A stretch of 64,000 nt of DNA from a virus (IMGVR_UViG_3300043077_000173:1-64000); one strand, 5' to 3'; positions 7,332-26,839 are shown, numbered from the stretch's first letter. Program-made: numbers and translations. Notes: a model not told the origin generated them from the letters alone.

Positions 7332-7422
7332 TATTCAAAACCTTTTGATTTCATAGTATCTTACTAATTATTTACTCATATTTTGTAAAATGAATTACTA
7401 ACAACAAGCATTTACGCAGATG

Positions 7423-10400
7423 CTATAAGTCAAAGTATATAGTAGCATTCTCTGCCCCAAATTGTGTATCATAATCGGCTAATGCTTTAATAGTTTCTTC
7501 CATATCAGCTCTAAAATGAATTTCTTTTATTTTAGGGCAATGTTGGAAAGCATGCTGTAGTCCGCTAATGTCTACACTTGTAAGAGCTGGAAATGATACA
7601 GAACCAGTAAGACCTGTACAGTTATAGAAAGCAGAATCAAGTCCATTCTCCCCTATACTTGTAAGAGCTGAAAATAATACTGATCCAGTGAGACCTGTGC
7701 AGCCAACGAAAGCATAACTCAGTCCCTTACTTCCTATACTTGTAAGAGCTGGAAATGATGCAGAAGTTAAACATTTGCAGTTGATAAATGCCTGTTCTAG
7801 GCCATTACTATCTATATTTGTTAAGGAAGGGAATGATACATCTGTTAAAGCAGTACAGTTTTTAAATATTTGATATAAAGAACTATTTCCAATAGTCAAC
7901 AATGATGGAAATGTTACGGATTCCATACTTGTATTCCCTATAAATGCTTGATAGAGTCCTTGTTTCTCTACTTTTTCAAGCATTGGAAAAGATACATTTT
8001 CTATATTTTTGCTGTCAGAAAAAGTGTCACCAATTCCGCTACTTTCAATACTCTTTAAAACAGGAAATGAAATATCTTTCAATCCTGTACAGCCTGAAAA
8101 TGATTCATTGAATCCTGATTCTTCAACTATCTCCGCTGATGGAAAAACAACATTTGTCAATGATGTACAACCATAAAATGCTCTCTCAAATCCATTAACG
8201 CTTTTAAGCACAGGAAATGAAACATCTGTTAAAGCAGTACAGTCATAGAAAGCATATCGTAACCCATAATGACCTATATTCGTTAAGGCAGGAAATGAAA
8301 CTGAAGTCAGACCTGTACATTTTTCAAAAGCATATGTAAGCCCTTGGTTTCCTATACTATTAAGTTTAGGAAATGAAACCGATGTAAGACCTGTACAGCC
8401 CTTAAATATATCAGCCAAGCCACTACCACCAGTAATAGTTTCAAGAGCTGGAAATGATACAGTCTTTAATCCAGTACATCCCGAAAATGTTACTTGTAGG
8501 CTTTGATCCCCAACATATGTTAAAGAGTCAAAAGAAACACTAGTTAGTCCTATGCAACTATAGAAAGCATTATAAAATCCTTGCATTCCTATACTGGTAA
8601 GTTTAGGAAATGAAACTGAACCTGTAAGACCCGTACAGCCAGAAAAAGCATTACTTAGTCCGCTACTTCCTACACTTGTGAGAGCAGGAAATACTACTTC
8701 ACCAGTAATGTCATTTTGATTGAGGAACGCATTGGTTAGATCAGTATAGCCAACAGTCTCTACTTTATTAATTCTAGCAGGTGGTAGTTTTCGGTTTTCC
8801 CTAACATAAGAAGCGTATTGATATATAGTGTAGATATACTCATCTTCATCTACTTCTGGCTCTTCTGGCTCAGTGACTTCTGGTTCTTCAATATCTGGTA
8901 TCTCTGGAACTTCTGGATCTGGTTCAGGTTCAGGCTCTGGATCCGGTTCAGGAACATCAGGCTCTTCAATATCTGGTATTTCTGGTTCGGGCTCAGGTTC
9001 GGGATCTGGTTCAGGTTCAGGGTCTGGAACATCAGGCACTTCTGGCTCTGGATCTGGTTCAGGGTCTGGATCAGTATAATCTGGTTCCCAAGGAATCTCT
9101 GGCTCGTCAGGCGTCTCTGGTTCAACGGGCTCAATAGGTGTCTCTGGCTCGTCTGGCTCGTCAGGTGTTTCTACATATACAATATCATCATTATTGTACT
9201 CATATGCTTCAACAATATCTTCTGAGTTATATTCTTTCAATCCTTTATAAAATGCTTGATATAAAACATCTCCGTCTTGTATAAACTCTTTTCTATAAGT
9301 TTTGTCCCATAAAATGTTTAAAGGAGCATTGTAACAAAGGATATCCTTCAAAAGAGTTTTATCAAAGCATTGAAGCTTACAAAGATTTATAACAGGTCTA
9401 TTAGGAATACTGTATAAACTATTATTTGATTCATAAGCTGATGATTTATCCAAAGCTGCTAATAAATTCGCGTATTCATCATTGTTCTCAATATTCATAT
9501 ACAGATAACATTCAAGAGCATTTTGACCTAACCCTTTCTCAACACTTATTGTAAAGACTCTACTAATAGTCTTGTAACCATTTGATGCTTCAACAATAAA
9601 TGAAAAGTCTTTATAGTCTTGGTATTCAACTTCCCCTGTTATTATACCATTATCAAATTCAAGCCCTGCTGGTAAATTACCGTCAGACAATATATAAGAA
9701 ACGTTATACTGAGAATTTGTTAAAATCTGTATATAGCATTGGTCTCCAACCTTTACAGATCCAAGGTTTTCAGATGATGCCCAAGAGATTTCTTCAGATT
9801 CTTTTAAAACGTTTGCAGATATTTCAAAACTTCTTTCAACAGTGTCATAATCATTTGTAACACTTATTGTTACATAATAGTCCGCAGTTTCATCAGATTG
9901 TAGTACACCTGTTATTCTTCCTGTACGATTTTCTAATGATAGCCCTTTAGGTAAATGTCCCCCTACAATATCATAGACTAATGTTTCTCCGCTATAATCA
10001 TTTGGGTCATATGCTTTAACAAATAATGTTGATGTATCTCTGTAATCAATCTGTCCTATTAAACCTTCTTCAGTAACCCATATTGGAGAAGATCCTTCAG
10101 GAATCTTTGTAACAACGGCTGTTATCTCTTTGGTTTCAACAATAACACCATCTCTCTTAATACCTAGCGTAAAATGATATTCAGTATCTTCTTCAACCTT
10201 ATCAAGCGTTCCATAAAGAAGCCCATAATCATTTAACATCAACCCTGCTGGTAAAGCACCTGATACTTTAACGATTTGATCCGATTCATCATTATCTTTT
10301 AACGTATACTGATTATTGAAATACTGTGATTCTACAAGTTGTAAATAATCTGAAACACTGTCATCAAAGTGTGGTAAATTATTCGAAACTTTTATCTCAA

Positions 10401-10671
10401 AGTATCTATCGGAAAATTCATCATCATTATATGCTCTTAAAGTAAACCCACAAGTTTTTGGAGCATCTACTTCTTTGGCAACTCCTTCAAAACCATAGCA
10501 ATATCCTGTGTAAACAGGAACTAAAGAAACACCATTTGGTAATTCACCGGAAATTACCTCGACTTTAACGTCATACTGTTGTTTTAAAAATACTTGAACG
10601 CCATCCTTTATAGATGTACCTTCTTCAACAATGGTCAATAGACCCGATGGTGTTTCCCATTTAATAGCCAT
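7423..10671 (-). CDS. putative virion protein: Ig-like repeats, Pro/Glu linker, BspA-type leucine-rich repeats
   Basis: Four SG.LP.GL.L..G.I.G Ig-like repeats, about 110-aa PEPEPD linker, about 15 FxGCTGLTxVSFPxLxxIG repeats, C-cap ..FGAENATIYFDL. Confidence 0.8.
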   Translation of the reverse strand: MAIKWETPSGLLTIVEEGTSIKDGVQVFLKQQYDVKVEVISGELPNGVSLVPVYTGYCYGFEGVAKEVDAPKTCGFTLRAYNDDEFSDRYFEIKVSNNLPHFDDSVSDYLQLVESQYFNNQYTLKDNDESDQIVKVSGALPAGLMLNDYGLLYGTLDKVEEDTEYHFTLGIKRDGVIVETKEITAVVTKIPEGSSPIWVTEEGLIGQIDYRDTSTLFVKAYDPNDYSGETLVYDIVGGHLPKGLSLENRTGRITGVLQSDETADYYVTISVTNDYDTVERSFEISANVLKESEEISWASSENLGSVKVGDQCYIQILTNSQYNVSYILSDGNLPAGLEFDNGIITGEVEYQDYKDFSFIVEASNGYKTISRVFTISVEKGLGQNALECYLYMNIENNDEYANLLAALDKSSAYESNNSLYSIPNRPVINLCKLQCFDKTLLKDILCYNAPLNILWDKTYRKEFIQDGDVLYQAFYKGLKEYNSEDIVEAYEYNNDDIVYVETPDEPDEPETPIEPVEPETPDEPEIPWEPDYTDPDPEPDPEPEVPDVPDPEPEPDPEPEPEPEIPDIEEPDVPEPDPEPEPEPDPEVPEIPDIEEPEVTEPEEPEVDEDEYIYTIYQYASYVRENRKLPPARINKVETVGYTDLTNAFLNQNDITGEVVFPALTSVGSSGLSNAFSGCTGLTGSVSFPKLTSIGMQGFYNAFYSCIGLTSVSFDSLTYVGDQSLQVTFSGCTGLKTVSFPALETITGGSGLADIFKGCTGLTSVSFPKLNSIGNQGLTYAFEKCTGLTSVSFPALTNIGHYGLRYAFYDCTALTDVSFPVLKSVNGFERAFYGCTSLTNVVFPSAEIVEESGFNESFSGCTGLKDISFPVLKSIESSGIGDTFSDSKNIENVSFPMLEKVEKQGLYQAFIGNTSMESVTFPSLLTIGNSSLYQIFKNCTALTDVSFPSLTNIDSNGLEQAFINCKCLTSASFPALTSIGSKGLSYAFVGCTGLTGSVLFSALTSIGENGLDSAFYNCTGLTGSVSFPALTSVDISGLQHAFQHCPKIKEIHFRADMEETIKALADYDTQFGAENATIYFDL
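8856..9170 (-). repeat. low-complexity Pro/Glu/Asp tandem repeat linker
   Basis: Repeated tctggttcagg-type units encoding PEPDPEPEPE. Confidence 0.9.
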
Positions 10672-10681
10672 GTTTTATTTC

Positions 10682-11296
10682 CTAAAATCTTCCAGTAGCA
10701 ATAATTTTTTTGATCTCGTCTTCCATATCTGGTGCAATAGCACATTGACATTCTTCACCACCACAACAAGGACCTTCGTGATGATGTTCACAGCCTTCTC
10801 CGTGATGATGATCGCAACCTTCTCCATGATGATGTTCGTGAGGACAGCCACATTCATCTGGGCATTCTTCATCACCATATACTGTCGAAATTTCAATGGT
10901 TTGAGGTTCTGCACCAACGGTTGTATTCAAAAGATTTGATAAATCAATGCTATTAAAGCATGTAGAGTTAACTGGTCCTGATTGATATTGTAGATAGCCT
11001 TGGGTAACTTCTTCAGGAGCATTTCCGCCACATTCAGCACCACATTGACATTCTTCACCATCAAAATGTTCGTGTGGAACATCTGCTACCAAACAATCAT
11101 AACAATCAATGGTTAAAGGATTTACACCATCGTTGAAGGAAATCAATTTTTCCATAACTTTATGAAGATCTACGTCAGACTTTGACTCATCTTTTGACCA
11201 TTCTAATAATCTCAAAAATAACGAAAACGAAATAAGGATATTCTTCTCACTTTCAGACTTTGTTAATAATGAATTAGTGATATTTTCTTCAAACAT
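10682..11296 (-). CDS. conserved phage protein with His/Cys-rich C-terminal tail
   Basis: LFLRLLE...DVDLH..E N-domain; HHHGEGC repeats; TATAAATA upstream. Confidence 0.7.
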   Translation of the reverse strand: MFEENITNSLLTKSESEKNILISFSLFLRLLEWSKDESKSDVDLHKVMEKLISFNDGVNPLTIDCYDCLVADVPHEHFDGEECQCGAECGGNAPEEVTQGYLQYQSGPVNSTCFNSIDLSNLLNTTVGAEPQTIEISTVYGDEECPDECGCPHEHHHGEGCDHHHGEGCEHHHEGPCCGGEECQCAIAPDMEDEIKKIIATGRF

Positions 11297-11326
11297 TTAT
11301 TAAAACCTCTTCGAAAATTATATCAT

Positions 11327-11334
11327 TATTTATA
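11327..11334 (-). promoter_or_regulatory. T4-type late promoter for the His-rich and Ig-LRR genes
   Basis: Exact TATAAATA just past the groEL terminator. Confidence 0.7.
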
Positions 11335-11340
11335 CAAAAA

Positions 11341-11360
11341 GAAGCCCAATATTGGGCTTC
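11341..11360 (-). terminator. intrinsic terminator after groEL
   Basis: Perfect palindrome GAAGCCCAATATTGGGCTTC followed by a T5 run on the - strand. Confidence 0.75.
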
Positions 11361-11383
11361 TTCTTTCAGGAGATAACATTGGA

Positions 11384-13009
11384 TTACATTTGAGGCTGTT
11401 TATTAAACATCTCCATCATTTTAGCATTTGCTTCAAGATCATCAATGACCAACCCCTCTACGGTCAACAATGAACCAGCAACTGAAGCTCCGTTTTCTAA
11501 TGCACAGCGAAGAACTTTTGTGGCATCAAGAATACCAGCCTCCATCAAATCACAATATTCATCATTACGAACATCATAACCATAGGTGAATGAAGGATTC
11601 TCCAAAACTTTTTCATAAACAACTTCACCAGATTTACCAGCATTGTTTACGATGGCTAATAGCTGTGATTTGGTAGCTTTCTTAACAATTTCTACACCAC
11701 TGTAGAAGTCGTCTGTTTCACCTTCAGCTGTTTTCAACGATGGAGCAAGCTTGATCAAAGAAACACCACCACCAGGCAAGACACCTTCTTCAAGAGCAGC
11801 ACGAACAGCACAACATGCATCATCTACACGATCTTTCTTTTCTTTGACCTCTACTTCAGTAGCACCGCCTACTTTAATAACAGCAACACCATTAGACAAA
11901 CGAGCAATACGTTCACGAACCTTCTCTTTGTCGTATGTTGACTCTGTATTTTCGAGTTCGACTTTCAATTGTTCAATACGCTCAGCAATAGCTTCTTTCG
12001 AACCAGCACCACCGATAATCGTTGTTTCTGTAGCAGATACTTTGATTCGTTCACAAGTACCTAAATCTTCCAGCTTGATGTTCTCGGCTTCAGATCCCAA
12101 TTGTGCAGAAGAGAATACACCACCTGTCAGCAAAGCAATGTCTTCCATATACTGCTTACGATAAGAACCAAATGACGGAGCTTTTGTAGCACAACACTTT
12201 AAGAACCCTTTAACAGTATTGATAGCCATCATTGCCAAAGGCTCTGAATCAACTTCATCAGCAATGATCAAGATTGGACGATTAGTTTTTACAACCTGTT
12301 CCAATAATGGAGCAATGGACTGAATGGTATTGATTTTACCATCATACATGTAAATAAACGGATTATCAAACTCAACTGTCTGTTTTTCAATGTTTGTCTG
12401 GAAATATGGTGATAGATAACCTTGGTCATACTGTAAACCATCAACGATTTCAAGCTCTGTGTTCAAACCTCTTGCTTCTTCAACGGTAATAACACCATCA
12501 CGACCAATCTTATCAACTGCTTTGGCAATCAATTTACCAATCTCTTTATCGCCATTAGCAGAAATATTAGCTACCTGTTCAACTTCATCAGAGGTTTCAA
12601 TAACTTTTGAATGCTCTTTCAAACCTTTTACCAATTCATTTACGGCATAGTCAATACCACGCTTAATATCTGTTGAACGGCGACCTTTGCTAATGTTCTT
12701 CATACCTTCTTCTGCAATTGCTTTGGCAATAATGCATGTATTCGTCGTACCATCACCAGCCTGCTTATTTGTCTTTTCGCTAGCACTAACAAGCATCTTA
12801 GCACCTTCACCTTCAGGACCAGACAATGTCAATGACTTAACCATTGTATAGCCGTCTTTTGTCAACTTGGTTGTGCCCCAATCCTGCTGAATAGCAATGT
12901 TCCGACCACTCGGACCAGCCGTAGCTGCAACTGCTTCTGTAACTGCTGCCAAGCCGTCATACATACGCTGTCTTGCTTCTTCACCTTTTAATAGTTTCTT
13001 AATTTGCAT
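11384..13009 (-). CDS. groEL: chaperonin GroEL
   Basis: GPSGRN, TKDG, AGDGTT, ISANGD, VGGATEVEVKEKKDRVDDA, GVLPGGG. Confidence 0.98.
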   Translation of the reverse strand: MQIKKLLKGEEARQRMYDGLAAVTEAVAATAGPSGRNIAIQQDWGTTKLTKDGYTMVKSLTLSGPEGEGAKMLVSASEKTNKQAGDGTTNTCIIAKAIAEEGMKNISKGRRSTDIKRGIDYAVNELVKGLKEHSKVIETSDEVEQVANISANGDKEIGKLIAKAVDKIGRDGVITVEEARGLNTELEIVDGLQYDQGYLSPYFQTNIEKQTVEFDNPFIYMYDGKINTIQSIAPLLEQVVKTNRPILIIADEVDSEPLAMMAINTVKGFLKCCATKAPSFGSYRKQYMEDIALLTGGVFSSAQLGSEAENIKLEDLGTCERIKVSATETTIIGGAGSKEAIAERIEQLKVELENTESTYDKEKVRERIARLSNGVAVIKVGGATEVEVKEKKDRVDDACCAVRAALEEGVLPGGGVSLIKLAPSLKTAEGETDDFYSGVEIVKKATKSQLLAIVNNAGKSGEVVYEKVLENPSFTYGYDVRNDEYCDLMEAGILDATKVLRCALENGASVAGSLLTVEGLVIDDLEANAKMMEMFNKQPQM

Positions 13010-13095
13010 AATTTTGTTTCTCCTAAAATTTTCTAATCTCTTTAATAGTAATCTTAATCATCAAGATTTGTCAAAAATATTTTTGTCAATGATTT

Positions 13096-13125
13096 TTCCA
13101 GAAAAAAGCATATGTTTTTCTGGAA
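13096..13125 (-). terminator. hairpin between groES and groEL
   Basis: TTCCAGAAAAA-N8-TTTTTCTGGAA; TTGACA boxes lie between it and groEL. Confidence 0.5.
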
Positions 13126-13136
13126 TTTTTTACCAA

Positions 13137-13517
13137 TTATTTAAGGATTCCCAAGATGTTAGACTGTTTAAGCATGGTTTTCTCTTTTCCAGAAATTTTA
13201 ACAGTAACACCTGTAAGTTTTGGAAATAAAACTCGATCGCCAACAGATACATACATCGGTGTCAAAACACCAGTCTGCTCACAAATAGCTCCAGTACCAA
13301 CAGCAACAACCGTTCCAGTTGAAGGTTTTTCAGTAGAATTTTCAGGTAAAACCAATCCACCAGCGGTTGTTTTATTTTCTTCATCTTTTTCGATAATGAC
13401 ATAGTCAAACATTGGGGTAATGGTATCAAAGCCTTTATAAACGATTTTATATCCATCGTCTGAAGGCTCTAAAACCATTGATTTAGATTCTTCATCAATT
13501 GTATAAGATGCTTTCAT
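13137..13517 (-). CDS. groES: co-chaperonin GroES (N-terminally extended)
   Basis: PMFDYVII, TTAGGLVLP, EKPSTGTVVAVGTG, VSVGDRVLF, ILGIL. Confidence 0.95.
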   Translation of the reverse strand: MKASYTIDEESKSMVLEPSDDGYKIVYKGFDTITPMFDYVIIEKDEENKTTAGGLVLPENSTEKPSTGTVVAVGTGAICEQTGVLTPMYVSVGDRVLFPKLTGVTVKISGKEKTMLKQSNILGILK

Positions 13518-13580
13518 TAAATTATCTCCATTATTTTTATTTCAAGCCTTACTATAGCCTTAATAATGAAGATTGTCAAA

Positions 13581-15176
13581 TTATTTTTGTAAAATTTGTG
13601 TAAGCAGTTGATTACGTTGTTGTTCAGGTATTTTTCTATTTGTTTTCAACATTTTAACAGCAGTGCTTTTCATTAAATCATTTGCCGTAAATACTGACAA
13701 AACGAATCTATCAAGATACCCTAAACCATTCTTATTATCTTCCATTTTTTCAGAATATATACGCAATACAACACTTATGATATATTCCGCCCATTTAGCA
13801 TTATGAACGTATGGAGCTAATTTAAGAGGAAGAGATGAGGAATAAAGAGGAGCATAAAATGCTTCAAAACTTCGTAAGCTGTCTTGATACTGATTAAAAA
13901 ATTGAATAACTCCCTTGTTTGAACGATTATCACCATATCCAAAAAATCTGGCAATCACATCAATCTGATCATCTTCTAGAAGATATTTGAAGAACACAAC
14001 AGATTCTTCCTCATTTAATGGAGTAAATATTGCATAAAGTAATTTAAGATCCTGTAACAAATCGCTTTCTAGTTGAATATACTCGTCTTGATGGTTGCCA
14101 TCAAATAGTTTCCTTCCAAGGTTTATAAAAAAAGGCTGATAATCATCTTTCTCTACAATATTGCTCAAAGTTTCACAATATTCCGAAACAACCTTTAATA
14201 GCTTATTATTTCCCTTAGTCCTTTCCCTATAGCATTTATTAGCAAGATTTAATAAAAACGTCGGATCACCATTTTTAAAATCCTTTACAACTCTTCCTTT
14301 TATAGAGTTTTCACTATATGAGTTAAAGTCTGAAATCAACTCGTTTGGCTCATAGTGTTCACCGTAAATGATTTTGAAAAAATTATCTTTGGTCATACCG
14401 TTGATTTCATTATCGCTTAAAGCATTACTCATCCATCTGACAAGCTCATATAAAAGCTTAAAAAATTCATAAACCGTTGATTTATTGTAATCATCCATGA
14501 AATCTCTTGGTCCTCTCCATTCAAGTGTTCCTTGTGGATGTATACGGATTAAACGATATTTGGTACTATTCATAAGATCAATGATGTCTTGAATCTGGCT
14601 GTTTTTAATGCATTTCCCAATCTTTTTCAAATACTCAACAGAAGCATACTCATCATTAAAGAAATCAAAGTTTTTGAAATGAGTGATCTTCTTAATCATT
14701 TTATTATCAAGAGATAATTTAGAAATAATCCATATAACATCTTGATCATTGATATCAGGAAATGATAAATGAACATGAAATCCACAGCTATCATTCGTAT
14801 AAAAATCATAGTTGTGTAAAGTGTCTAAACCGTTTATGCATTTTTTGAGATTGGCTGGCGTGAACTCCATTACAGGTGTTGCCCATTCAAAAGGATATTC
14901 GTCATTTTCGGTTATATGGATTGATCCGTCGCTCTTTATATCAAGCTCATCATTATCCGTATAGTCAAAAGCGTCTTTTATATCCTTTTCGATAATATAG
15001 CTGGCTAATTCTTCGTCGTTGTCTGGATCGACTTCAGCATCATCCATATACCAGCTAAACTTTTCGTCAGTGATTTTAGCATATGCCTCTAACTCAAAGC
15101 CGAACTTAAATTGCGAAGCCAGATATTTTTCAAGCAACAGTTGTTCATTCAACACTTTAACCATTGATATCTCCAA
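13581..15176 (-). CDS. putative amidoligase (COOH-NH2 ligase)
   Basis: FKFGFELE, DGSI, E..TP, NDSCGFHVHLS, GTLEWR motifs; late-type box at 15191-15196. Confidence 0.8.
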   Translation of the reverse strand: MEISMVKVLNEQLLLEKYLASQFKFGFELEAYAKITDEKFSWYMDDAEVDPDNDEELASYIIEKDIKDAFDYTDNDELDIKSDGSIHITENDEYPFEWATPVMEFTPANLKKCINGLDTLHNYDFYTNDSCGFHVHLSFPDINDQDVIWIISKLSLDNKMIKKITHFKNFDFFNDEYASVEYLKKIGKCIKNSQIQDIIDLMNSTKYRLIRIHPQGTLEWRGPRDFMDDYNKSTVYEFFKLLYELVRWMSNALSDNEINGMTKDNFFKIIYGEHYEPNELISDFNSYSENSIKGRVVKDFKNGDPTFLLNLANKCYRERTKGNNKLLKVVSEYCETLSNIVEKDDYQPFFINLGRKLFDGNHQDEYIQLESDLLQDLKLLYAIFTPLNEEESVVFFKYLLEDDQIDVIARFFGYGDNRSNKGVIQFFNQYQDSLRSFEAFYAPLYSSSLPLKLAPYVHNAKWAEYIISVVLRIYSEKMEDNKNGLGYLDRFVLSVFTANDLMKSTAVKMLKTNRKIPEQQRNQLLTQILQK

Positions 15177-15235
15177 AAATTGTCTGTTAATATTTATGGC
15201 TTCGCTGCAAGGATTTATGAAAAGAATTGCTCCGC

Positions 15236-15514: not shown

Positions 15515-15651
15515 CGCTTTTAAATCCTCTCAACAAATGTTTTTCTGTCAAGCATTTATATCTGCTATGCTTTACCTTATAACATCTACTTAAAGGATTG
15601 TCAAGCGTTTTTTGTAAATAATCATAGCAACATTTTATCAAGGATTTTCAA

Positions 15652-16197: not shown

Positions 16198-16203
16198 ATT
16201 ATT

Positions 16204-18366: not shown

Positions 18367-18413
18367 AGTATTCCCTCATTCGTGTATTATACTACTATTT
18401 ATGATAAAAAGAA

Positions 18414-18435
18414 AGCCGAGCTATTAAACTCGGCT
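18414..18435 (-). terminator. intrinsic terminator
   Basis: AGCCGAG-N8-CTCGGCT followed by T-rich tract on the - strand. Confidence 0.7.
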
Positions 18436-18442
18436 GTATCTT

Positions 18443-18979
18443 TTATAAAGCTTTTGCAGGAATATCTACAAAAAATGGTTCGCCTTTAACCTTACACTGA
18501 ATATAAGATTCTTCTACAGTTTTATGAGGGCATAGTTTAGTAATAATATATGTACTGTCAGCTTTTTTAGCACCCATATGCTTGAAATAGTCTTTATCAG
18601 ATTCTTTTAGTAAAATCTTTTTAGCAGAAAGTTCATCACCAACTTTTAAGCCTTCAAAGATTTTAGCAACTTTTCCAAACTCTTTTGCTTCACTTGTTAA
18701 ATTGTCATACGCTTGATCTTCAGCGTTCGCTTTAATATCATCTTCAACAGCTGAAGCTTCTTCTTGCTTACCGAGTGTAATAGTATCTCCATCTAAGCTG
18801 GCAACAGAACCGTTATCAGACAAGATTTCAGCAAGATTGGCTTCATCCATCTGTACACCAAACTCTCTATTAATGAATAGTACCAGCTTTGCAAGTGATA
18901 CACTCTTAACACCTTTTGATGTAAGAATCATCAATAAGCTTTGAATGTTATTAACAATTCTTCCCTCAATATTGTCCAT
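18443..18979 (-). CDS. hypothetical (probable head-associated) protein
   Basis: 178-aa ORF coupled to the upstream gene in a late unit. Confidence 0.6.
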   Translation of the reverse strand: MDNIEGRIVNNIQSLLMILTSKGVKSVSLAKLVLFINREFGVQMDEANLAEILSDNGSVASLDGDTITLGKQEEASAVEDDIKANAEDQAYDNLTSEAKEFGKVAKIFEGLKVGDELSAKKILLKESDKDYFKHMGAKKADSTYIITKLCPHKTVEESYIQCKVKGEPFFVDIPAKAL

Positions 18980-19458
18980 TATTTCTGTTCCCTTTCAACT
19001 TCGCCAAAATCAACGTCAGATAGATCTAAATCATCTGTTTCACCATAATCGGCGTCTGCATCAAAATCTTCATAATCGTCTGAATTTTCTTCATCGCCAA
19101 AATCTGTATCTAAATCATTTAGCCCAGCATTTTCACCAGATGCTTCACCAGAAAGATTTCCTTGAGAGATTTTAACAACTTCATCATCAATAGACGATTT
19201 AATGTCAGATAATGACTGAATAGCTTGATCAAGTTTTTCACCAATCATTTGGTTAAAGCTATCACCAGCTTCAATATCACCAGAATATTTAAGCTTTTTA
19301 ACGAGTTCAGCAACGTCCTTAATCTTGATATTTGAAAGCTTTTCAACCATACTCTGTAAATCTCCAGAAATATTAGAGGTTGCTAAAGCTACTTCTGTCT
19401 GATTGATTTCAGCTTCACATAGCCTTTGAATAAAATTTTTTGCCATAGTTTTCTCCAT
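18979..19458 (-). CDS. acidic helical, probable head-associated protein
   Basis: RLCE cleavage-like motif near the N-terminus, acidic tail; late-type box at 19475-19480. Confidence 0.6.
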   Translation of the reverse strand: MEKTMAKNFIQRLCEAEINQTEVALATSNISGDLQSMVEKLSNIKIKDVAELVKKLKYSGDIEAGDSFNQMIGEKLDQAIQSLSDIKSSIDDEVVKISQGNLSGEASGENAGLNDLDTDFGDEENSDDYEDFDADADYGETDDLDLSDVDFGEVEREQK

Positions 19459-19528
19459 TACTATTTTCTATCATTATTTATTCTTATTTCATTTAATAGC
19501 ATTTATCAATAATATTTTACAAAAAATC

Positions 19529-19557
19529 TTGACATTAGACGATTTATGGTTTATCGT
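19529..19557 (+). promoter_or_regulatory. sigma70-type promoter for the primase operon
   Basis: TTGACA-N17-TATCGT. Confidence 0.65.
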
Positions 19558-19582
19558 GTTCCTAAAAGATATAGAGGAAAAG

Positions 19583-20584
19583 ATGCATCCAATATTAGAA
19601 ACAATATATAATCTGTTACCACCAGAGAAAAAGCAACGTAATAACAAATGGATTGCTTTTAATGCTCCGTGTTGTGAAGAATATGGACATGAAAACCCTG
19701 ATAAAAAATCAAGGGGTAATATGCTATTCACAGATGATTCTTGCGTATATAACTGTTTTAACTGTCATTATACTACAGGCTTTAAGGTCGGACAATATAT
19801 GAGTAAAAAATTTACCGATCTTTTATATTGGATGGGGGCGTCCTCTAAAGAGATAAACGATTTAAGGCTAATGATTCGAGAGTATAACGAGTCAAATACT
19901 TCAGGAATCATTCAAAAGGAAATCGTTAAAAAGAGAGAGATTAGAAAAATCCCTAAAAATTACAAAAGTATTCAAGAATCTTTATGCGAAGGTGAAAAAT
20001 CTAAAACCTTTCAAAAGATTGTACAATACATTTACCAAAGGAATCCAAGATTATTAGAATGGTCAACACTCTATTGGGCTGAAAAGAATGAAAGCTTTTT
20101 AATCGAGTGTAAAGAATATGATGAAACAGTTGGCTATTCTTTGAGAAGTATTGATGATAATTCGAAGAGTAAATACCTTCATTATATTCCATATGGTTAT
20201 GTATACAATTTTGACAACCTTTTAAAAGATAGGAAATATGAAATCTTGGTAGAAGGTGAATTAGATGCTCAAGCAATAGATGGTATCGCATATCTTGGCT
20301 CAACACTTACAGACGATCGTTTAAAGCGTTTAATACCCTTTGTAAATGATAAAGAGTTAATCATCTGTCCAGATAGAGATAACGCTGGTAAGAAAATCGT
20401 TGATCAAGTGTTAGAACAAGATTTACCGTTCAGCATTGCTTTCCCAAATTGGGATAGAGGTATTAAAGATTCTGAAGAAGCTGTTAAAAAATATGGCAGA
20501 TTATATACGATATATACTATATTAAATAGTAAAGAAAAAGATAAAGCATTGATAAAAATGAATGCTACAAAATGGTTTAATTAG
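19583..20584 (+). CDS. DNA primase (zinc finger plus TOPRIM; gp61/DnaG-like)
   Basis: PCC..CFNC zinc ribbon, VEGELDA, PDRDNAG; start moved to ATG 19583 (GAGG RBS) because the TTG at 19529 is a -35 box. Confidence 0.88.
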   Translation: MHPILETIYNLLPPEKKQRNNKWIAFNAPCCEEYGHENPDKKSRGNMLFTDDSCVYNCFNCHYTTGFKVGQYMSKKFTDLLYWMGASSKEINDLRLMIREYNESNTSGIIQKEIVKKREIRKIPKNYKSIQESLCEGEKSKTFQKIVQYIYQRNPRLLEWSTLYWAEKNESFLIECKEYDETVGYSLRSIDDNSKSKYLHYIPYGYVYNFDNLLKDRKYEILVEGELDAQAIDGIAYLGSTLTDDRLKRLIPFVNDKELIICPDRDNAGKKIVDQVLEQDLPFSIAFPNWDRGIKDSEEAVKKYGRLYTIYTILNSKEKDKALIKMNATKWFN

Positions 20585-20595
20585 AAGGTGTTAAA

Positions 20596-21120
20596 ATGAA
20601 TTTATTTACAACAAGTGATAATCCCGAAGCTTGTATTAAAGTATTAGACGACGTACTTTTAACAAAAGCTTTATTAGAGTCCGCTCAAATGATTTCTTGT
20701 GCTATCAGATTGAACGAATATATTGATGAACCTATTCCTGAAGAGTCTTTATATAAAGTCTTTAACGCAAGTGAGGAACATAATGTATGGGTAAGAGAAA
20801 ATCGCTCAAATTATCGCTGGACATTCTATTACCTCATGGCTGCTCTAGGCGAATATCAATATCGTTATAAGAAAATTCACGATGCCACAAAAGTTGCTCA
20901 AGTTGCTATGAAGTTTGAAAAATACTTTCCAGAAGGTAAAATGACACCTTTTCCGAGAAAGTTTAATAAAGAGTATGAAAACTATCGTGATTTAATGAAT
21001 ATCAAGGATACCTTTAAAGCATATAAAGAATACCTTGTTACCAAATGGCAGAAAAAATTTGCTGAAGGTAAAAAGGTTACTTGGACTGGGCGTGAAGAAC
21101 CTGATTTTGTTCGAAGATAA
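20596..21120 (+). CDS. pyrimidine-dimer glycosylase/endonuclease V-like protein
   Basis: MNLF....P..C...LDD....K.LLESAQM, W.RE...NY.W, EY.YRY.K.H, WT.R..P pattern. Confidence 0.7.
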   Translation: MNLFTTSDNPEACIKVLDDVLLTKALLESAQMISCAIRLNEYIDEPIPEESLYKVFNASEEHNVWVRENRSNYRWTFYYLMAALGEYQYRYKKIHDATKVAQVAMKFEKYFPEGKMTPFPRKFNKEYENYRDLMNIKDTFKAYKEYLVTKWQKKFAEGKKVTWTGREEPDFVRR

Positions 21121-21123
21121 CTA

Positions 21124-21152
21124 TTGACAATAATCGTTTTATTGGGTATATT
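21124..21152 (+). promoter_or_regulatory. sigma70-type promoter for the helicase
   Basis: TTGACA-N17-TATATT. Confidence 0.75.
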
Positions 21153-21184
21153 AAGCATAAACCGTTTATAGAAAGTATAGTGGA

Positions 21185-22534
21185 ATGTTGATTAATAAAA
21201 ATTTTGACGAAAAAGATCAGAAAACTCTTATTGAACTGTTGTGTAGCGATGGAACAGTTTTTTCAAGAGTATTACCAATTCTTAAAGCCGAATATTTTAA
21301 TAAAAAATTTCAGCCTACTATCAATTACTTAATTGATTTTTCAAACAAATACAATACTTTACCAACATTTACTCAGCTAAACAATGAAGCAAGAATTGAA
21401 TACAATGTTGTAAACGGTATTAGCTCAAACGTTAATCTTCAAAAATCTGCCTTAGATCTTGCTGAAGGTTTTATCAAAAAGCGTGCTCTGGAAATAGCTG
21501 TTGAACAAGCTTATTCATTAATCGCTAAAGGTGAAACCTCTGGAATAGATACTATCATAAAGGAAGCCCAAAGTATTTCTTTACAGCAAGATTTGGGCAT
21601 GAACTTTTGGGAAAAACCTGATGAATGGTTAAAACAGCAAGAAACTGACCAAGCATTATTACCAACAGGTTGGAAAACATTTGACGAAAGACTTGGTGGG
21701 GGTCTTGCCTATGGAGAATTGGAATATGTGATCGGTGCTTCAGGTGGTGGTAAATCATTAACGATGCAAAATATGGCTGTAAACTGGTCTTGTCAAGGTT
21801 ATAACGTTATATACTTTACATTAGAGATGAATAGACGTTTGGTTGGTAAACGTATGGCATCAATGATTTCAAATGTCCCTTATAGAGATATTCGAGGTAA
21901 TGTTTCAGGAGTCGCTAACACCATTATTGCTAAAAGAAAAAATATCATACCAGGCGTTTTACAAGTAGCAGATTTACCTATTGGATGTAACGCAAATCTT
22001 ATTGAAAGCTTTATTCAAGAATTTGAACTAAAGACAAACATTATTCCACAAATCATTTTTGTAGACTATGCTGATATTATGACTCCTTGTGATAAACGTA
22101 TTGACCCAAACAGTATTTCAAGAGTTGATAAAGCAATTACCCTTGAATTGAGAGAGATTGCTCGTGAAAGAACTCGTAATGGTAAGAACACAACCATTAT
22201 TACAGCCAGCCAATTAACAAAAGAGGCAATGGATGAAGTCGATTGTGGAATGAGCAACATAGGTGGTGGGCAATATAAGAGTTCGAACTCAGATAATATC
22301 TTTTTAGTAAAGACAACCGATGCATTACGTCAGAAAGGCGAGTACGAGTTTAAGTTCTTGAAAACAAGAAACTCTGGGGCTAAAGATACAAAGCTTCGTA
22401 TGAAATACAACGTTGATACACTACTTATTTCAGATCTCGATGAAGTGCAATCGGCTACCCCAGTGTTCAATACAAACCAACAAGTTTCTAATGCGTTAGC
22501 TACATTACAAGGATTAACACAAAAATCTAGCTAG
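21185..22534 (+). CDS. DnaB-like replicative helicase (T4 gp41-like)
   Basis: PTGW..D..LGGG, Walker A GASGGGKS, TLEM, VDYAD, TASQ, LKTRN. Confidence 0.93.
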   Translation: MLINKNFDEKDQKTLIELLCSDGTVFSRVLPILKAEYFNKKFQPTINYLIDFSNKYNTLPTFTQLNNEARIEYNVVNGISSNVNLQKSALDLAEGFIKKRALEIAVEQAYSLIAKGETSGIDTIIKEAQSISLQQDLGMNFWEKPDEWLKQQETDQALLPTGWKTFDERLGGGLAYGELEYVIGASGGGKSLTMQNMAVNWSCQGYNVIYFTLEMNRRLVGKRMASMISNVPYRDIRGNVSGVANTIIAKRKNIIPGVLQVADLPIGCNANLIESFIQEFELKTNIIPQIIFVDYADIMTPCDKRIDPNSISRVDKAITLELREIARERTRNGKNTTIITASQLTKEAMDEVDCGMSNIGGGQYKSSNSDNIFLVKTTDALRQKGEYEFKFLKTRNSGAKDTKLRMKYNVDTLLISDLDEVQSATPVFNTNQQVSNALATLQGLTQKSS

Positions 22535-22540
22535 TCCATT

Positions 22541-22568
22541 AAAAAAGACCCTTTTCAGGGTCTTTTTT
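22541..22568. terminator. bidirectional terminator
   Basis: AAAAAAGACCCT-TTTC-AGGGTCTTTTTT between convergent genes. Confidence 0.85.
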
Positions 22569-22604
22569 CGTAAATCATTTAAGAAGATGCTTTATGTAAA
22601 GCTT

Positions 22605-23879
22605 TTATTTACAGCCTTCCTCGATCTCAGGCTCTTCTTCAAAAAGCTTTGCTTTACCAGTTTTAGGATCGAGTTCCATATCAGTTTCTGAACCAACATC
22701 TTCGGAACAAGCTGATTCTTCAACATCATCTTCGTCCACAACATCTTTTGGATCATCCCATTCACAATCTTCTCGTGAATCAAGATATCTTGCACAATGA
22801 TCGCAAACCCAGCCGAAATAATGCTCGTGTTTCATTTCATTCTTTGGAAACTCTTCACCACACCAATTACATTTACGGGTTTCTTCAAAATCATCTCCAT
22901 CAGATAAATCATCAGAAGTATCAATCGCTTCATCAACAATATCTTCAGAACAAGTTGATTCTTTAACAGTTTCATCAGTATTCACACCAGCACATTCTAA
23001 AGCTTCAGCAATCTGCTTCTCAATATCTTCTGAAAGAGATTCATTTGTGTTCAATTCTTCATTTTCAAAGGTTTGAGCAGCTTTTTCAACAATAGCTTTA
23101 TCAACGCCGTTCTTTACCAAATATTGCTGTAATTTTTTGTAAACGTTGATTGGGCGATCTAAAGCTGTTTGATAAGAAATCCATGATCTAATCTTTTCAA
23201 CAAATGCTTTCATCTTAGGATCTGTCTGAACCAATTTCTTCACAATCTGTTGATATGATTGATTGTTTTCATAAGAAACTTTACCAAAAATGTCCATGAA
23301 AGTATATACCAAATACTCATTAACATAATTGTCTAATTCTTCGCCTTTCAAACCACCAAATAAACCTTCTTCAAGCTTTTTCTTAAAATCTTCCGAAGAT
23401 TTTTCATCAGAAGATTTATCCTCAGCTTTTTCAGCAGGCTTTTCTTCTTCAGCCTTTTTAGAAGCTTTATCAGAATCTTCATACTTAAAATCTTTCCAAT
23501 CTTTTGGCTCAGAAGGTGTTGAAGCGTTACTATAAGATTTAACATCAGAAGTTGGCTCTTCACCTTTTGAATTAGATGTTGCTGGTTCAAACTTTGCTCC
23601 ATCTTTTAAAACGCTTTCTGAACCTTTTGAAAGTAAACTATCTCCTTTGCCCTCATCTTTTGTTAAAGTGTTGATAACAGAAGATTCAACTTCTCCCCAA
23701 CCATCTGAAGGAGTTGTTGTAGATAATTTAACGGGCTGTTCTTCATATGGTAACTCGGCTTCAGTAATTGACTTAATCTTATCACCATATCTTGTCATAT
23801 AATCAACATATTCATCAAGAGTTTCAAACTTTTTAATACCTCTTTTTCCTGAAAATGTTTCCAAGATGTATTTCATCAT
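22605..23879 (-). CDS. acidic putative internal head protein with a C4 zinc-finger module
   Basis: Multiple [ILV]xE motifs; CNWC...CDHC; late-type box at 23917-23922. Confidence 0.6.
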   Translation of the reverse strand: MMKYILETFSGKRGIKKFETLDEYVDYMTRYGDKIKSITEAELPYEEQPVKLSTTTPSDGWGEVESSVINTLTKDEGKGDSLLSKGSESVLKDGAKFEPATSNSKGEEPTSDVKSYSNASTPSEPKDWKDFKYEDSDKASKKAEEEKPAEKAEDKSSDEKSSEDFKKKLEEGLFGGLKGEELDNYVNEYLVYTFMDIFGKVSYENNQSYQQIVKKLVQTDPKMKAFVEKIRSWISYQTALDRPINVYKKLQQYLVKNGVDKAIVEKAAQTFENEELNTNESLSEDIEKQIAEALECAGVNTDETVKESTCSEDIVDEAIDTSDDLSDGDDFEETRKCNWCGEEFPKNEMKHEHYFGWVCDHCARYLDSREDCEWDDPKDVVDEDDVEESACSEDVGSETDMELDPKTGKAKLFEEEPEIEEGCK

Positions 23880-23961
23880 TGTATATATTCCTTACATTAT
23901 AATGTATCTTTATGATTATTTATTCGTTAAAAGATTTACATAGATAATTGTCAAATATTTG

Positions 23962-23987
23962 GGCTCAATCCTAAAAAGAATTGAGCC
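23962..23987. repeat. left 26-bp palindromic site (inverted copy at 26857-26882)
   Basis: GGCTCAATCCTAAAAAGAATTGAGCC; 25/26 identical to the reverse complement of 26857-26882. Confidence 0.9.
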
Positions 23988-24018
23988 GTAATTTTTTCTT
24001 TGATTATTATTTTTACAT

Positions 24019-24047
24019 CTTGTGTCATAAATAATTTATGACACAAG
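24019..24047. promoter_or_regulatory. 29-bp perfect palindrome containing a late-type TAAATA box
   Basis: CTTGTGTCATAAAT-A-ATTTATGACACAAG, about 40 nt upstream of the tail fibre ATG. Confidence 0.7.
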
Positions 24048-24088
24048 CCTTATAAAATAAGAATTTAATAAAATCATAAGGATAAAAT

Positions 24089-25321
24089 ATGGCATTACGA
24101 TTAGGTTCAACGCTTATTTCCGGAGATGATGTAAATGCTCAAATTGAAAGCATTAATAAATCATTGGACTTAAAAGCTAGCAGTCAAAACGTTTACACAA
24201 AAGATGAAGTAAATGATTTATTAAAGACTTCAGCAGATCTTACTGATGAATCTTTAAAAGAGATCAATGATGCTATTGCAGGACTTGATACAGACTCTAG
24301 CATTCCTTTTATTACGTGTGATTTAAGCAATACTGATAATTATTTCATATCTGGTCAAGGCCTATTTTTACGCTTTAAAGATGATGCAGGTGCTTATGTA
24401 AAACTTGAAAAATTTAAAACGTATTATTTAAGAATTAGACTTGCAAGTAGTTCAGATTTTAAGAAATCTTATTACAATCTGCAACCTTTTATAGTGCTTA
24501 ATGGAAATAATACAGATACCTCTGCTCCGTTAGAATCTAGAGCAGCCTCTTTTAGTTCGTTAAGTGACTTGGAGCAAGGTGGTACAGTTTATGGATCTGG
24601 TGTAGTTACATTCAATAATCTTATTAATAACTACTGTGGCCATAACCTTAGTGATAACTGGCAACAAGATCGCATTGTACCTATGGTATTTATGGGTTCA
24701 TCATCTTTTACAGCAAATGCTTTATTACTTACAAAGTTAGATACTCCTGATTTAGACGGTACGACAATCACAAAGAACGACAGTGACGAGTTGCAGGTGA
24801 TTGGTGTGATTGATTCTAATTCTGGAGATGCGGTTAAGACTTGGAGCGGTACAACAGACGAGTACAACGCTATCACTGATAAAGACCCGAACACATTGTA
24901 CAACATCACTGACGACTTCTCCGCCACAGCATACGAGGCTTATAGTAAGACAGAGAGTGACGCATTGATGGATAATAAGGCAAACACGGATTTAGACAAT
25001 CTTACGAGTACAGGGAAAGCGTATGCGTCTGGATTGGGAATGCCAAGTGAACAATATATCGATTTGACTTGGGAGAGTCCTTACGAATATACAGCACCAG
25101 CAAACGGGTATTTGTACTTTTATAGAAATGCATCGACTGGACAATACATTGTTCTTACAAATAGTACGGTAGGGATGAGAAATAGCATGTTTTCGAGTTC
25201 AGGGAATCAGATTGCTGTAATAGCACTAGCAAGAAAGGGTGATAATTTTGCAATGGAATGTACAGCAACAGGAACAATTCAAGCATTTAGATTTATTTAC
25301 GCACAGGGAGAGGTTAGCTAG
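24089..25321 (+). CDS. tail fibre-like protein
   Basis: VYTKDEV, W.GT..EY.AI..KDPNTLYNI, KANTDLDNL and YTAPANGY motifs typical of tail fibres. Confidence 0.75.
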   Translation: MALRLGSTLISGDDVNAQIESINKSLDLKASSQNVYTKDEVNDLLKTSADLTDESLKEINDAIAGLDTDSSIPFITCDLSNTDNYFISGQGLFLRFKDDAGAYVKLEKFKTYYLRIRLASSSDFKKSYYNLQPFIVLNGNNTDTSAPLESRAASFSSLSDLEQGGTVYGSGVVTFNNLINNYCGHNLSDNWQQDRIVPMVFMGSSSFTANALLLTKLDTPDLDGTTITKNDSDELQVIGVIDSNSGDAVKTWSGTTDEYNAITDKDPNTLYNITDDFSATAYEAYSKTESDALMDNKANTDLDNLTSTGKAYASGLGMPSEQYIDLTWESPYEYTAPANGYLYFYRNASTGQYIVLTNSTVGMRNSMFSSSGNQIAVIALARKGDNFAMECTATGTIQAFRFIYAQGEVS

Positions 25322-25374
25322 AACTTCACAGAGTAAACTAAGTTTTAATTGCAAAACGGATTAGGAAAAATAAA

Positions 25375-26049
25375 ATGATCTACAAAAAGAATTCACCTAT
25401 TGGTACAGTTCGTCAGGGTTATGCAGACGCTCGAAAAATATATCTTGGGGATAAACTTGTATGGCAAGCTAGCGATTGGGATTACTATGTTTGGAGAGAT
25501 ATTGATAAAAATGGTATTGTCTCGCTTGCAACAGGCGAATTTCCAAGTGACATATACGCAGATATAAAAGAAATAGGAACTTTTGGACTTTCTTATGCTT
25601 TTTATGGATGCACAGGACTTACTGGATCTGTTTCATTCCCTGCTCTTACTAGCGTAGGAACCAACGGACTTTCTTATGCTTTCTCTGGATGCATAGGTCT
25701 CACAGGTTCGGTTTCATTTCCTGCTCTTACTAGTGTAATGACCATGGGACTTGCTAATGCTTTCTCTGGTTGCACAGGTCTCACAGGTTCAGTTTCATTT
25801 CCTTCTCTTACAAGTGTAGGAACCACCGGACTTACTAATGCTTTCTCTGGTTGCACAGGTCTCACAGGTTCAGTTTCATTTCCTTCTCTTACTAGAGTAA
25901 TGACCGTAGGACTTTCTAATGCTTTTAAAGGTTGTATAGGTATAACCGAACTTCATTTCCGAGCTGATGCACAATCTGTCATAAAAAAATCAGCAGGTTA
26001 CTCCAGCAACTTCGGGGCTACTAATGCAACAATTTACTTTGACTTATAA
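25375..26049 (+). CDS. BspA-type LRR protein (putative receptor-binding/adhesin)
   Basis: KIYLGDKLVW N-terminal motif, four 27-aa LRR units, C-cap FGATNATIYFDL. Confidence 0.8.
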   Translation: MIYKKNSPIGTVRQGYADARKIYLGDKLVWQASDWDYYVWRDIDKNGIVSLATGEFPSDIYADIKEIGTFGLSYAFYGCTGLTGSVSFPALTSVGTNGLSYAFSGCIGLTGSVSFPALTSVMTMGLANAFSGCTGLTGSVSFPSLTSVGTTGLTNAFSGCTGLTGSVSFPSLTRVMTVGLSNAFKGCIGITELHFRADAQSVIKKSAGYSSNFGATNATIYFDL

Positions 26050-26063
26050 CACGGAGAAGGTCT

Positions 26064-26792
26064 ATGTCAAGACTAAAAATTCGAAAAACAACTAATAGTG
26101 GCGTACTTTCTGGCTATACAGGTGAAGTAACCGGGGTTTTTGATAATATTAAAGAAATAGGGCAATATGGGCTTTATTATGCTTTCCAATATTGCAACCT
26201 TACTGGTTCAGTTTCATTCCCAGCTCTTACTAGTGTAGGAGATTATGGACTAAATGACGCTTTCTTTAGATGCACAGGCCTTACAGGCTCGGTATCATTT
26301 CCTAACCTCTCAAGTGTAGGAAGTGACGGATTAAACAATGCTTTCTATGGTTGCACAGGTCTTACAGGTTCAATCTCTTTTCCTTCCCTTACAAGTGTAG
26401 GAGATTCTGGACTAAATTATGCTTTCTATGGTTGCACAGGTCTTACAGGTTCAATCTCTTTTCCTTCCCTTACAAGTGTAGGAGATTCTGGACTAAATTA
26501 TGCTTTCTATGGATGCTCAGGACTTACAGGTTCAATCTCTTTTCCTTCCCTTACAAGTGTAGGAGATTCTGGACTAAATTATGCTTTCTATGGATGCTCA
26601 GGACTTACTGGATCTGTTTCATTCCCTGCTCTTACTAGCGTAGGAACCAACGGACTTTCTTATGCTTTCTCTGGTTGCACAGGCATAACCGAACTTCACT
26701 TTAGAGCAGATGCACAATCTGTCATAGAGGCTACTGACGGGTATTCCGAAAACTTTGGAGCAACAAATGCTACTATATACTTTGACTTATAG
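26064..26792 (+). CDS. BspA-type LRR protein (putative receptor-binding/adhesin)
   Basis: GGAG RBS, six LRR units, C-cap FGATNATIYFDL. Confidence 0.8.
   Translation: MSRLKIRKTTNSGVLSGYTGEVTGVFDNIKEIGQYGLYYAFQYCNLTGSVSFPALTSVGDYGLNDAFFRCTGLTGSVSFPNLSSVGSDGLNNAFYGCTGLTGSISFPSLTSVGDSGLNYAFYGCTGLTGSISFPSLTSVGDSGLNYAFYGCSGLTGSISFPSLTSVGDSGLNYAFYGCSGLTGSVSFPALTSVGTNGLSYAFSGCTGITELHFRADAQSVIEATDGYSENFGATNATIYFDL
26340..26610 (+). repeat. 81-bp tandem repeat (about 3.3 near-identical units)
   Basis: gctttctatgg recurs at 26340, 26421, 26502 and 26583. Confidence 0.95.
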
Positions 26793-26839
26793 TATCTAAG
26801 GAAAATACTTATATCTCCCAAGTATCTAAAGAAAATACT
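26791..26839. repeat. pair of 19-bp direct repeats, 30-bp period
   Basis: AGTATCTAAGGAAAATACT (26791) and AGTATCTAAAGAAAATACT (26821). Confidence 0.85.

Follow-up and report, generated by a model that had tools for sequence, protein, structure and literature searches.

Leucine-rich repeats (LRRs) of the BspA type are protein-binding solenoids of bacterial surface adhesins. Three genes with repeats of this class, here called A, B and C, lie in the first 64 kb of a 110-kb virus record from IMG/VR (IMGVR_UViG_3300043077_000173:1-64000; hereafter the window, meaning the whole 64,000-nucleotide stretch that was analysed; G+C 33%). An earlier interpretation made from the DNA alone (the sequence-only reading) had proposed that these genes exchange DNA to build a repertoire of receptor binders, conceptually like the assembly of variable lymphocyte receptors (VLRs) in lampreys. 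Other described systems also invite comparison. In fungal NOD-like receptors (NLRs), repeats of high internal conservation (HIC; Podospora het-d/het-e/nwd WD40, ANK and TPR repeats) are exchanged within and between paralogues, vary in number and are diversified at few positions (PMC4986451, PMC12222747). The gp38 adhesins of T-even phages are encoded behind the fibre gene, with conserved motifs separating interchangeable variable segments (PMC3157838), and in the jumbo phage Goslar, anchor-plus-LRR proteins with a DUF7941 anchor, predicted to be surface-fibre LRRs, have been read as host-recognition elements (bioRxiv 10.64898/2026.04.21.720040). A full-text literature search found no paper on the phage LRR family described here or on an LRR receptor-binding protein of this type. 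At this locus, gene A is very probably an insertion chimera and the adjoining downstream open reading frame (ORF) the displaced half of the same ancestral gene, a feature absent from the sequence-only reading. The locus clearly shows a probable host-binding protein evolving by modules, with no new programmed diversification mechanism, as its changes are what homologous recombination and selection would produce.

Gene A (7423-10671, minus strand) encodes a protein of 1082 residues with He_PIG immunoglobulin-like (Ig) domains and PF13306 LRRs. Gene B (25375-26049, plus strand; 224 residues) consists of a small beta-rich N-terminal adaptor, an N-cap, units B1-B4 (25609-25932) and a C-cap, and gene C (26064-26792, plus strand; 242 residues) has a short N-terminus of a recurrent class followed by units C1-C6 and a C-cap. 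All three are complete ORFs with start, cap and stop, and their PF13306 (LRR_5) scores of 120 bits (A), 34.8 bits (B) and 58 bits (C) exceed the curated gathering cut-off of 27.7. With the xSFPxL motif as the anchor, A has 15 units, spaced 24-27 residues apart; B has 4 and C has 6, all of them 27 residues (81 nt) long. This map agrees with the unit counts of the sequence-only reading, and the unrelated N-termini that it described for the three genes were likewise confirmed. Each protein ends in the same C-terminal cap, ...HF(R/K)xD...FGxxNAT(I/V)YFDL.

An AlphaFold model of B forms an LRR solenoid (predicted local distance difference test, pLDDT, 88.4) whose best PDB matches are TpLRR 6mlx (prob 1.0, template modelling (TM) score 0.46-0.48) and 4gt6, and whose nearest viral matches are entries named "leucine-rich repeat protein" from uncultured Caudoviricetes. 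The hidden Markov model match, the solenoid fold and an xIGxxAFxxC-like core thus place the phage proteins with the BspA/TpLRR class (PF13306; TpLRR 6mlx; Bacteroides/Faecalibacterium 4fs7 and 4gt6). They differ from that class in a unit of 27 residues that holds an additional GL pair and a TG insertion, in a C-cap (HFRAD...NAT(I/V)YFDL) that is almost confined to phage contigs, and in having short modular adaptors or an Ig stalk at the N-terminus with no visible secretion signal or cell-wall anchor. By eye, as no signal-peptide predictor was applied, the translations of A, B and C contain no hydrophobic leader or anchor, and the phage proteins would reach the outside on virions and not by way of a secretion signal.

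The origin of gene A can be read from its orthologues. Searches with A residues 1-600 as the query recovered orthologues that are single ORFs of 873-879 residues (57-60% identity; P0004-P0008; contigs of up to 388 kb), 1006 residues (44%) and 906-912 residues (38%). All of the orthologues found carry He_PIG and none carries LRR_5. P0009 and P0014 belong to the more distant ones, at 38-44% identity. The match of the orthologues with A stops at about residue 500, beyond which they have a differing C-terminal region of about 385 residues that ends in SPEFQLI. In the window this region is encoded by a separate ORF of 405 residues (6114-7331, minus strand). After about 22 new N-terminal residues, this ORF matches orthologue residues ~489-873 over their full length, to the shared SPEFQLI end, at 57-61% identity, a level equal to that of the A N-part. 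When the 405-residue protein was searched with phmmer against 1.84 billion representatives, every full-length relative was fused within a larger protein. Gene order is also shared with the related locus L062, which has a Cys-rich gene upstream (36% identity) and a DNA-polymerase-fragment gene downstream, and a search for PF13306 in five related jumbo-phage records (203-287 kb) gave no match. Because the sister clade and the outgroups are unsplit, the split state is almost certainly derived, through the in-frame insertion of a block of about 1.9 kb at a hinge of the ancestral gene.

On this comparison, gene A divides into an old and a new portion, all on the minus strand. The N-part (residues 1 to ~503; 9163-10671) holds four He_PIG Ig-like domains (E=1.7e-24) and a conserved middle domain. 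It is followed by a Pro/Glu/Asp-rich linker of about 120 residues with short tandem DNA repeats (8797-9162) and by the LRR insert (7423-8796; PF13306 E=7.5e-35), which comprises an N-cap, 15 units, the family C-cap and a TAG stop; neither is present in any orthologue. A 91-nt spacer (7332-7422) dating from the insertion carries TAAATA 43 nt before the next ORF start and an AAAGG ribosome-binding site. The inserted block comprises the Pro/Glu spacer, N-cap, 15 units, C-cap, TAG, 91-nt spacer and a new ATG. A public gene call for the displaced ORF (P0284, 359 residues) begins at residue 47; conservation with the orthologues sets in earlier, at about residue 15-23, which favours the longer ORF, with its start at 7331, as the likelier product. 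The hinge appears to be an insertion-tolerant, recurrent site, since P0009 and P0014 hold a different insert there: an unrelated stretch of about 130 residues occupies the same place in P0009, P0014 and P0038 (alignment A1, columns 493-630; two other clades). In A, the 27-residue B/C type is confined to the outer four units; the inner eleven have 24-26 residues. The outer units are 72-77% identical to B and C units in nucleotides and 56% in amino acids, which makes them as distant from B and C as outside members of the family are. No donor of the A LRR domain was found, its best homologues being 35-51% identical, and the insertion junctions show no microhomology or target duplication, with local alignment scores at the shuffle mean. 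The linker DNA contains nested 12-, 63- and 75-nt tandem repeats (families D4-D8); slippage or unequal exchange probably lengthened the linker, whose size may differ from strain to strain.

This arrangement resembles the C-terminal domain swapping of receptor-binding proteins and the Goslar proteins, in which a conserved N-terminal anchor bears an exchangeable distal binding domain. Unlike in domain swapping, the new domain of A was inserted with its own stop, and the old distal domain persists as a separate conserved ORF. Unlike in Goslar, the anchor of A is an Ig (He_PIG) stalk and not DUF7941.

A second line of evidence concerns the 81-bp units. The identity reported by the sequence-only reading between 25613-25688 and 26599-26674 was reproduced at 76 of 76 bases, and it is the perfect core of a longer in-register tract of 101 nt with three mismatches (T/C, A/T, A/T), which covers unit B1 and its edges in gene B (25593-25693, plus strand) and unit C6 and its edges in gene C (26579-26679, plus strand). 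The two copies are direct repeats 986 bp apart. Units B1 and C6 agree at 79 of 81 nt, compared with 61-68/81 between B1 and B2-B4 and 57-59/81 between C6 and C2-C5. The exchange is judged genuine because this agreement far exceeds the paralogue background of 57-68/81. It joins units that are out of register, the first of B with the last of C, and the tract was probably copied from B into C, since the codon pattern of C6 is closer to that of B units than to that of C units. Within gene C, units C3-C5 (26352-26594) are mutually identical at 78-80 of 81 nt, each with private differences, which indicates a recent triplication of one unit by tandem expansion. Proteins elsewhere that share the C-type N-terminus have 2-3 units, compared with 6 here, those relatives being only 53-71% identical. 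The remaining units mostly differ by 15-30% at the DNA level.

The clustering of between-unit variation at a few codons of gene B, also described from the sequence alone, holds as well. Among B2-B4, scaffold codons differ by 0.04-0.05 per nt and variable codons by 0.33-0.42 per nt, an eight-fold excess obtained with a variable-codon set that was partly picked post hoc, and the variable codons show multi-nucleotide changes such as ATG/GGA. The same positions vary family-wide. In a logo of 218 units from 120 homologues, positions 12, 18, 19, 22, 23 and 26 are hypervariable (~3 bits of entropy) and rich in Ser, Tyr, Asn, Asp and Thr, and they coincide with the variable codons of B2-B4. Along with the post hoc choice of codons, two further points weigh against reading this pattern as diversification of a binding face: units of only 27 codons are too short for a rigorous ratio of nonsynonymous to synonymous rates, and the variable positions follow the second short strand of each unit, off the canonical concave sheet (DSSP, B model).

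Taken together, the B-to-C tract, the tandem expansion in C and the homogenised scaffold of B support the movement of DNA between and within the LRR genes. With the differing unit numbers, they lend support to that part of the sequence-only reading which held that gene conversion and unit gain or loss diversify these genes; the shared cap and 3' ends, which it had also cited, do not serve as evidence of exchange. The likeness to HIC repeats lies in units exchanged within and between paralogues (B1/C6 at 79/81, C3-C5 at 78-80/81) and in variation confined to few positions. Unlike HIC repeats, these are LRRs of a virus and not of an intracellular immune receptor, and high conservation is restricted to C3-C5, the B2-B4 scaffold and the B1/C6 pair, the rest being 70-80% identical.

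The 81-bp units and the low-complexity linker are repetitive DNA in a metagenomic contig, and mis-joined short reads could in principle have produced both the identical blocks and the chimeric gene A. We regard such an assembly artefact as extremely improbable. The inserted block of A is in frame and the other half resumes at the orthologous residue, so that two coordinated chimeric joins would be needed. Two direct copies on a linear path allow one traversal, and the order of B and C therefore cannot be a mis-join, although copy number could be affected. The near-identical units C3-C5 each hold private differences, and the same tandem LRR pairs and scaffold identities recur on independent contigs of other samples.

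The shared cap and gene ends require a more cautious interpretation. Of the candidates scored in a search with gene C, 2,110 proteins reached E<=1e-10, and in 80 of the best 120 homologues of C NAT(I/V)YFDL following an HFRAD-type strand forms the C-terminal end. The cap is indeed present in all three genes, as the sequence-only reading noted, and is uninformative on exchange among them because it is conserved across a very large family. The last 27 bp of A (7423-7449) and of C (26766-26792) are identical as described, with a chance probability of ~0.003 given identical peptides, the codon usage of the window and independent codon choice. Much of this identity is attributable to common descent, since the rare TAC and GAC codons at the cap end are common to all three genes, and it is at most weak evidence of exchange. 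Codon agreement across the caps (the same codon at 18 of 23 shared residues for A/C and 17 of 33 for B/C) hints at a short A/C conversion tract and is no proof of one. The further claim that identity continues past the two stop codons did not survive: the likeness ends after ~5 nt, and the 3' flanks of A and C, aligned locally, score at the mean of shuffled sequences and reveal no shared 3' element. Small hairpins after the A and C stop codons were considered and are unsupported, the fold z-score being 0 for the A flank. As a separate observation, an element of about 20 nt (GTATCTAAGGAAAATACT...) lies right after the stop of C and recurs as a direct repeat 32 nt further on, before the terminator hairpin (26792-26842).

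Lamprey VLRs and diversity-generating retroelements (DGRs) share with this locus a binding scaffold, which in VLRs is an LRR, and variation focused on exposed positions. A programmed VLR-like or shufflon-like process would treat the paralogues as donor and acceptor cassettes that are recombined in each generation, giving a repertoire across the population. T4-like phages recombine efficiently, and the 101-nt direct copies separated by 986 bp in such a phage, the near-identical tandem units and a unique pair of hairpins could all be placed on the side of this proposal. The hairpins are 26 bp long (GGCTCAAT...ATTGAGCC; 23962-23987 and 26857-26882), inverted and identical at 25 of 26 positions, and they bracket exactly the cassette formed by a tail-fibre-like gene, B and C, with no further copy in the 110 kb. 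Their folds are stable (z -3.4 to -5.3), and on the plus strand a T-run comes after the left copy, though this copy lies within a divergent intergenic region. From these stems and the T-run they look like intrinsic terminators, which speaks against their being recombination sites, and a mobile cassette may have brought them with it as its terminators.

Other observations also stand against programmed diversification. The 110 kb contain only three LRR loci, all complete ORFs, with no truncated or partial donor cassettes, and gave no match to PF00078 (reverse transcriptase), PF00239 (serine recombinase, resolvase/invertase) or PF00589 (tyrosine recombinase). Most units are 15-30% apart at the DNA level, so that exchange would be rare on the time-scale of their divergence. 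The hallmarks of VLRs and DGRs, namely an incomplete germline gene with donor arrays, a reverse transcriptase and an adenine-specific template/variable pair, are lacking here. A DGR was rejected, as PF00078 has no match in the record and the mismatches of the B/C tract (T/C, A/T, A/T) are not adenine-specific; an invertible or shufflon segment was also rejected, given the absence of PF00239 and PF00589 from the incomplete 110-kb record and the terminator-like character of the inverted 26-bp sites. The VLR-like assembly proposed from the sequence alone is therefore not upheld, and we consider programmed diversification very unlikely. A consideration on the other side is that the CheckV completeness of the 110-kb record is ~29%, and further paralogues or enzymes may lie elsewhere in the genome.

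The capped LRR subfamily was then placed in a wider setting. The exact cap motif occurs at only 9 loci in 185,579 bacterial and archaeal species (one genome each), all of them in gut or rumen metagenome-assembled genomes, and the subfamily is abundant on phage contigs. On these two grounds it is essentially phage-borne. Its N-termini fall into a few recurring classes. Tandem pairs or triplets of capped LRR genes on the same strand, 12-30 nt apart, are present at L073, L074, L077, L079, L085, L091 and L093. At L073, a B-type gene of 4 units likewise precedes a C-type gene of 3, and the adjacent paralogues of L074 share 57 nt of exact scaffold identity and differ at the same variable positions. 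The L074 contig (IMGVR_UViG_3300028886_000036, 275 kb) also displays, at L074:6530-7957, a two-unit super-repeat alternating SISFPEL and SVSFPKL, and it holds a second LRR cluster at L077.

The genes around B, C and A bear on where these proteins might act. The plus-strand cassette is headed by the tail-fibre-like gene (24089-25321, plus strand; 410 residues), which matches PF24243 Phage_tail_C (E=2e-7) and, weakly, tail-fibre PHROGs; its C-terminal 100 residues recur in relatives, and ATAAATA lies 62 nt upstream of it. The sequence (T)ATAAATA is the T4 late-promoter consensus. In the window, ATAAATA occurs only 29 times on both strands, with about 21 copies no more than 80 nt upstream of ORF starts (12-62 nt). 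It precedes the portal gene, a 2212-residue gene, the A operon and the fibre-like gene, and the replication genes are without it; example sites are 11327-11334, 44375-44382 and 42168-42175, all on the minus strand. From its distribution the motif looks like a T4-type late promoter, which could be used for sorting unassigned genes into late and non-late. LRR genes have fibre-like neighbours in the window, L074 and L075: tail-fibre-PHROG genes flank the LRR pair in L074, and a homologue of the C-terminus of the fibre-like gene stands directly upstream of an LRR gene in L075. Together, the late-promoter motifs and the neighbouring fibre genes suggest display on the virion.

The ancestral form of gene A points in the same direction. 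The displaced C-half contains a CBM5/12-like module, of the carbohydrate-binding module (CBM) type, of about 46 residues at residues ~276-326, the only part of its structural model (pLDDT 69.6) to be matched by Foldseek/VIA-align. The matches are chitin-binding domains and a small module of solved phage tail fibres, tailspikes and baseplates (Z 5-7.4), and more distant homologues carry Head_fiber_dimeric domains. From these features the ancestral protein looks like an Ig-stalked, carbohydrate-binding virion fibre.

The parallel with gp38 is that B and C are small and modular, with an N-terminal attachment part and a specificity part, and are encoded directly downstream of a fibre-like gene. 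Unlike gp38, they are LRR proteins with no relation to it in sequence or fold and form two tandem paralogues, and their docking on the fibre encoded upstream is a prediction. From this context the LRR proteins would, on balance, be late-expressed virion adhesins that bind the host surface. Three points weigh against this: PHROG and Pfam yield no structural annotation for A or its orthologues, gene A sits among replication genes and GroEL, and, among five tandem LRR loci examined in other phages, L073 and L077 are flanked by non-structural genes only.

Some of these points would equally fit LRR proteins acting inside the cell as effectors: they would bind host proteins after infection, for anti-defence or host takeover, or travel in the head and be injected. 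Binding between proteins is what LRRs typically do, none of A, B and C has a signal peptide by eye, gene A lies in a replication-rich region, and the tandem loci L073 and L077 are found among metabolic and replication genes. The architecture of A is that of a displayed binder, however, with the LRR borne on an Ig stalk through an extended linker of ~120 residues in place of the CBM-bearing distal domain. By eye, the N-terminal regions of B and C also show no capsid-targeting leader of the T4 type with an (L/I)xE cleavage site, and the late-promoter motifs and fibre-gene neighbours point to display. We thus take virion display to be the likelier location, with moderate probability, and an intracellular or injected binder to be unlikely.

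The explanation that we favour, and hold to be fairly probable as a whole, combines a portable LRR module, ordinary recombination, an insertion chimera and a virion-adhesin role. A, B and C carry copies of one phage-borne module, built of a 27-residue BspA/TpLRR-type unit with its own N-cap and the conserved C-cap and joined to different N-terminal carriers. B and C are a tandem pair of small proteins encoded directly behind a tail-fibre-like gene. In A, a complete module with a long Pro/Glu spacer and a stop was very probably inserted in frame into the hinge of a conserved Ig-domain/CBM fibre-like gene, with the result that the Ig stalk ends in an LRR domain and the old carbohydrate-binding half would be made as a separate protein. 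Unequal crossing-over between 81-bp units would lead to the gain and loss of units, along with short conversion tracts within and between paralogues. Recombination would keep the scaffold DNA alike and selection would keep 5-6 exposed Ser/Tyr/Asn/Asp-rich positions per unit different. As far as the DNA allows one to judge, these changes are very probably the product of ordinary homologous recombination.

In a bolder version, which we consider improbable, the capped LRR domain would be a self-contained, portable targeting cassette (spacer, N-cap, units, C-cap and stop) which jumbo phages of gut anaerobes insert into the hinges of fibre genes and shuffle between paralogues, and one insertion of which retargets a fibre and frees the old domain as a second adhesin, giving an enzyme-free host-range repertoire. 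If so, the 101-nt B/C direct repeat would yield fusion, deletion and expansion variants at a measurable frequency per lysate. The favoured explanation has consequences of its own. For the huge uncultured phages of animal guts, host-recognition proteins are almost uncharted, and a large, essentially phage-specific LRR subfamily with more than 2,000 relatives, tandem pairs and modular N-terminal adaptors is a candidate class of receptor binders. The locus also offers a natural example of a module grafted onto an existing fibre, in which an in-frame hinge insertion splits a gene and both halves are conserved. Both aspects bear on the prediction of phage host range, on split phage genes and on engineered LRR binders with defined variable positions.

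The window itself encodes a T4-like major head protein, a portal and a baseplate hub, together with GroEL, a primase, a DnaB-type helicase, a clamp loader and several homing endonucleases. Relatives retrieved through one window protein are contigs of 203-388 kb, one of them with direct terminal repeats. On the basis of the T4-like structural genes and the size of these relatives, the phage is an uncultured jumbo myovirus of gut type; homologues of the LRR genes come mostly from assemblies of the rumen, other animal guts and the human gut. Close relatives are scarce. A megablast of 20 kb against the INPHARED phages found no near-identical relative, scans of IMG/VR with the fibre gene gave no match, and the same scans with helicase and GroEL queries gave relatives at 33-47% only. 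A JGI metagenome scan with gene C gave best relatives at 62-68% on unrelated contigs, and across all searches the closest relatives found have an identity of only 57-71%.

Upstream of gene A, its operon is headed by a gene for a Cys/His-rich protein of 204 residues (10682-11296, minus strand), whose T4-type late-promoter motif TATAAATA at 11327-11334 stands just after the terminator hairpin of GroEL. The protein has Cys-rich motifs and a His-rich tail (HEHHHGEGCDHHHGEGCEHHH) and no family match. Related jumbo phages keep its gene immediately before that of the Ig protein (36% identity to L062:9470-9988). The protein may serve the fibre-like protein as a chaperone or as a partner that binds metal. 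Finally, a stand-alone gene with a part-length match to DNA polymerase (phrog_11127; 173-176 residues) adjoins the Ig-protein gene in both the window phage (5301-5822, minus strand) and the L062 phage (L062:13002-13532). This polymerase fragment is another sign of essential genes being kept in pieces in this group of phages.

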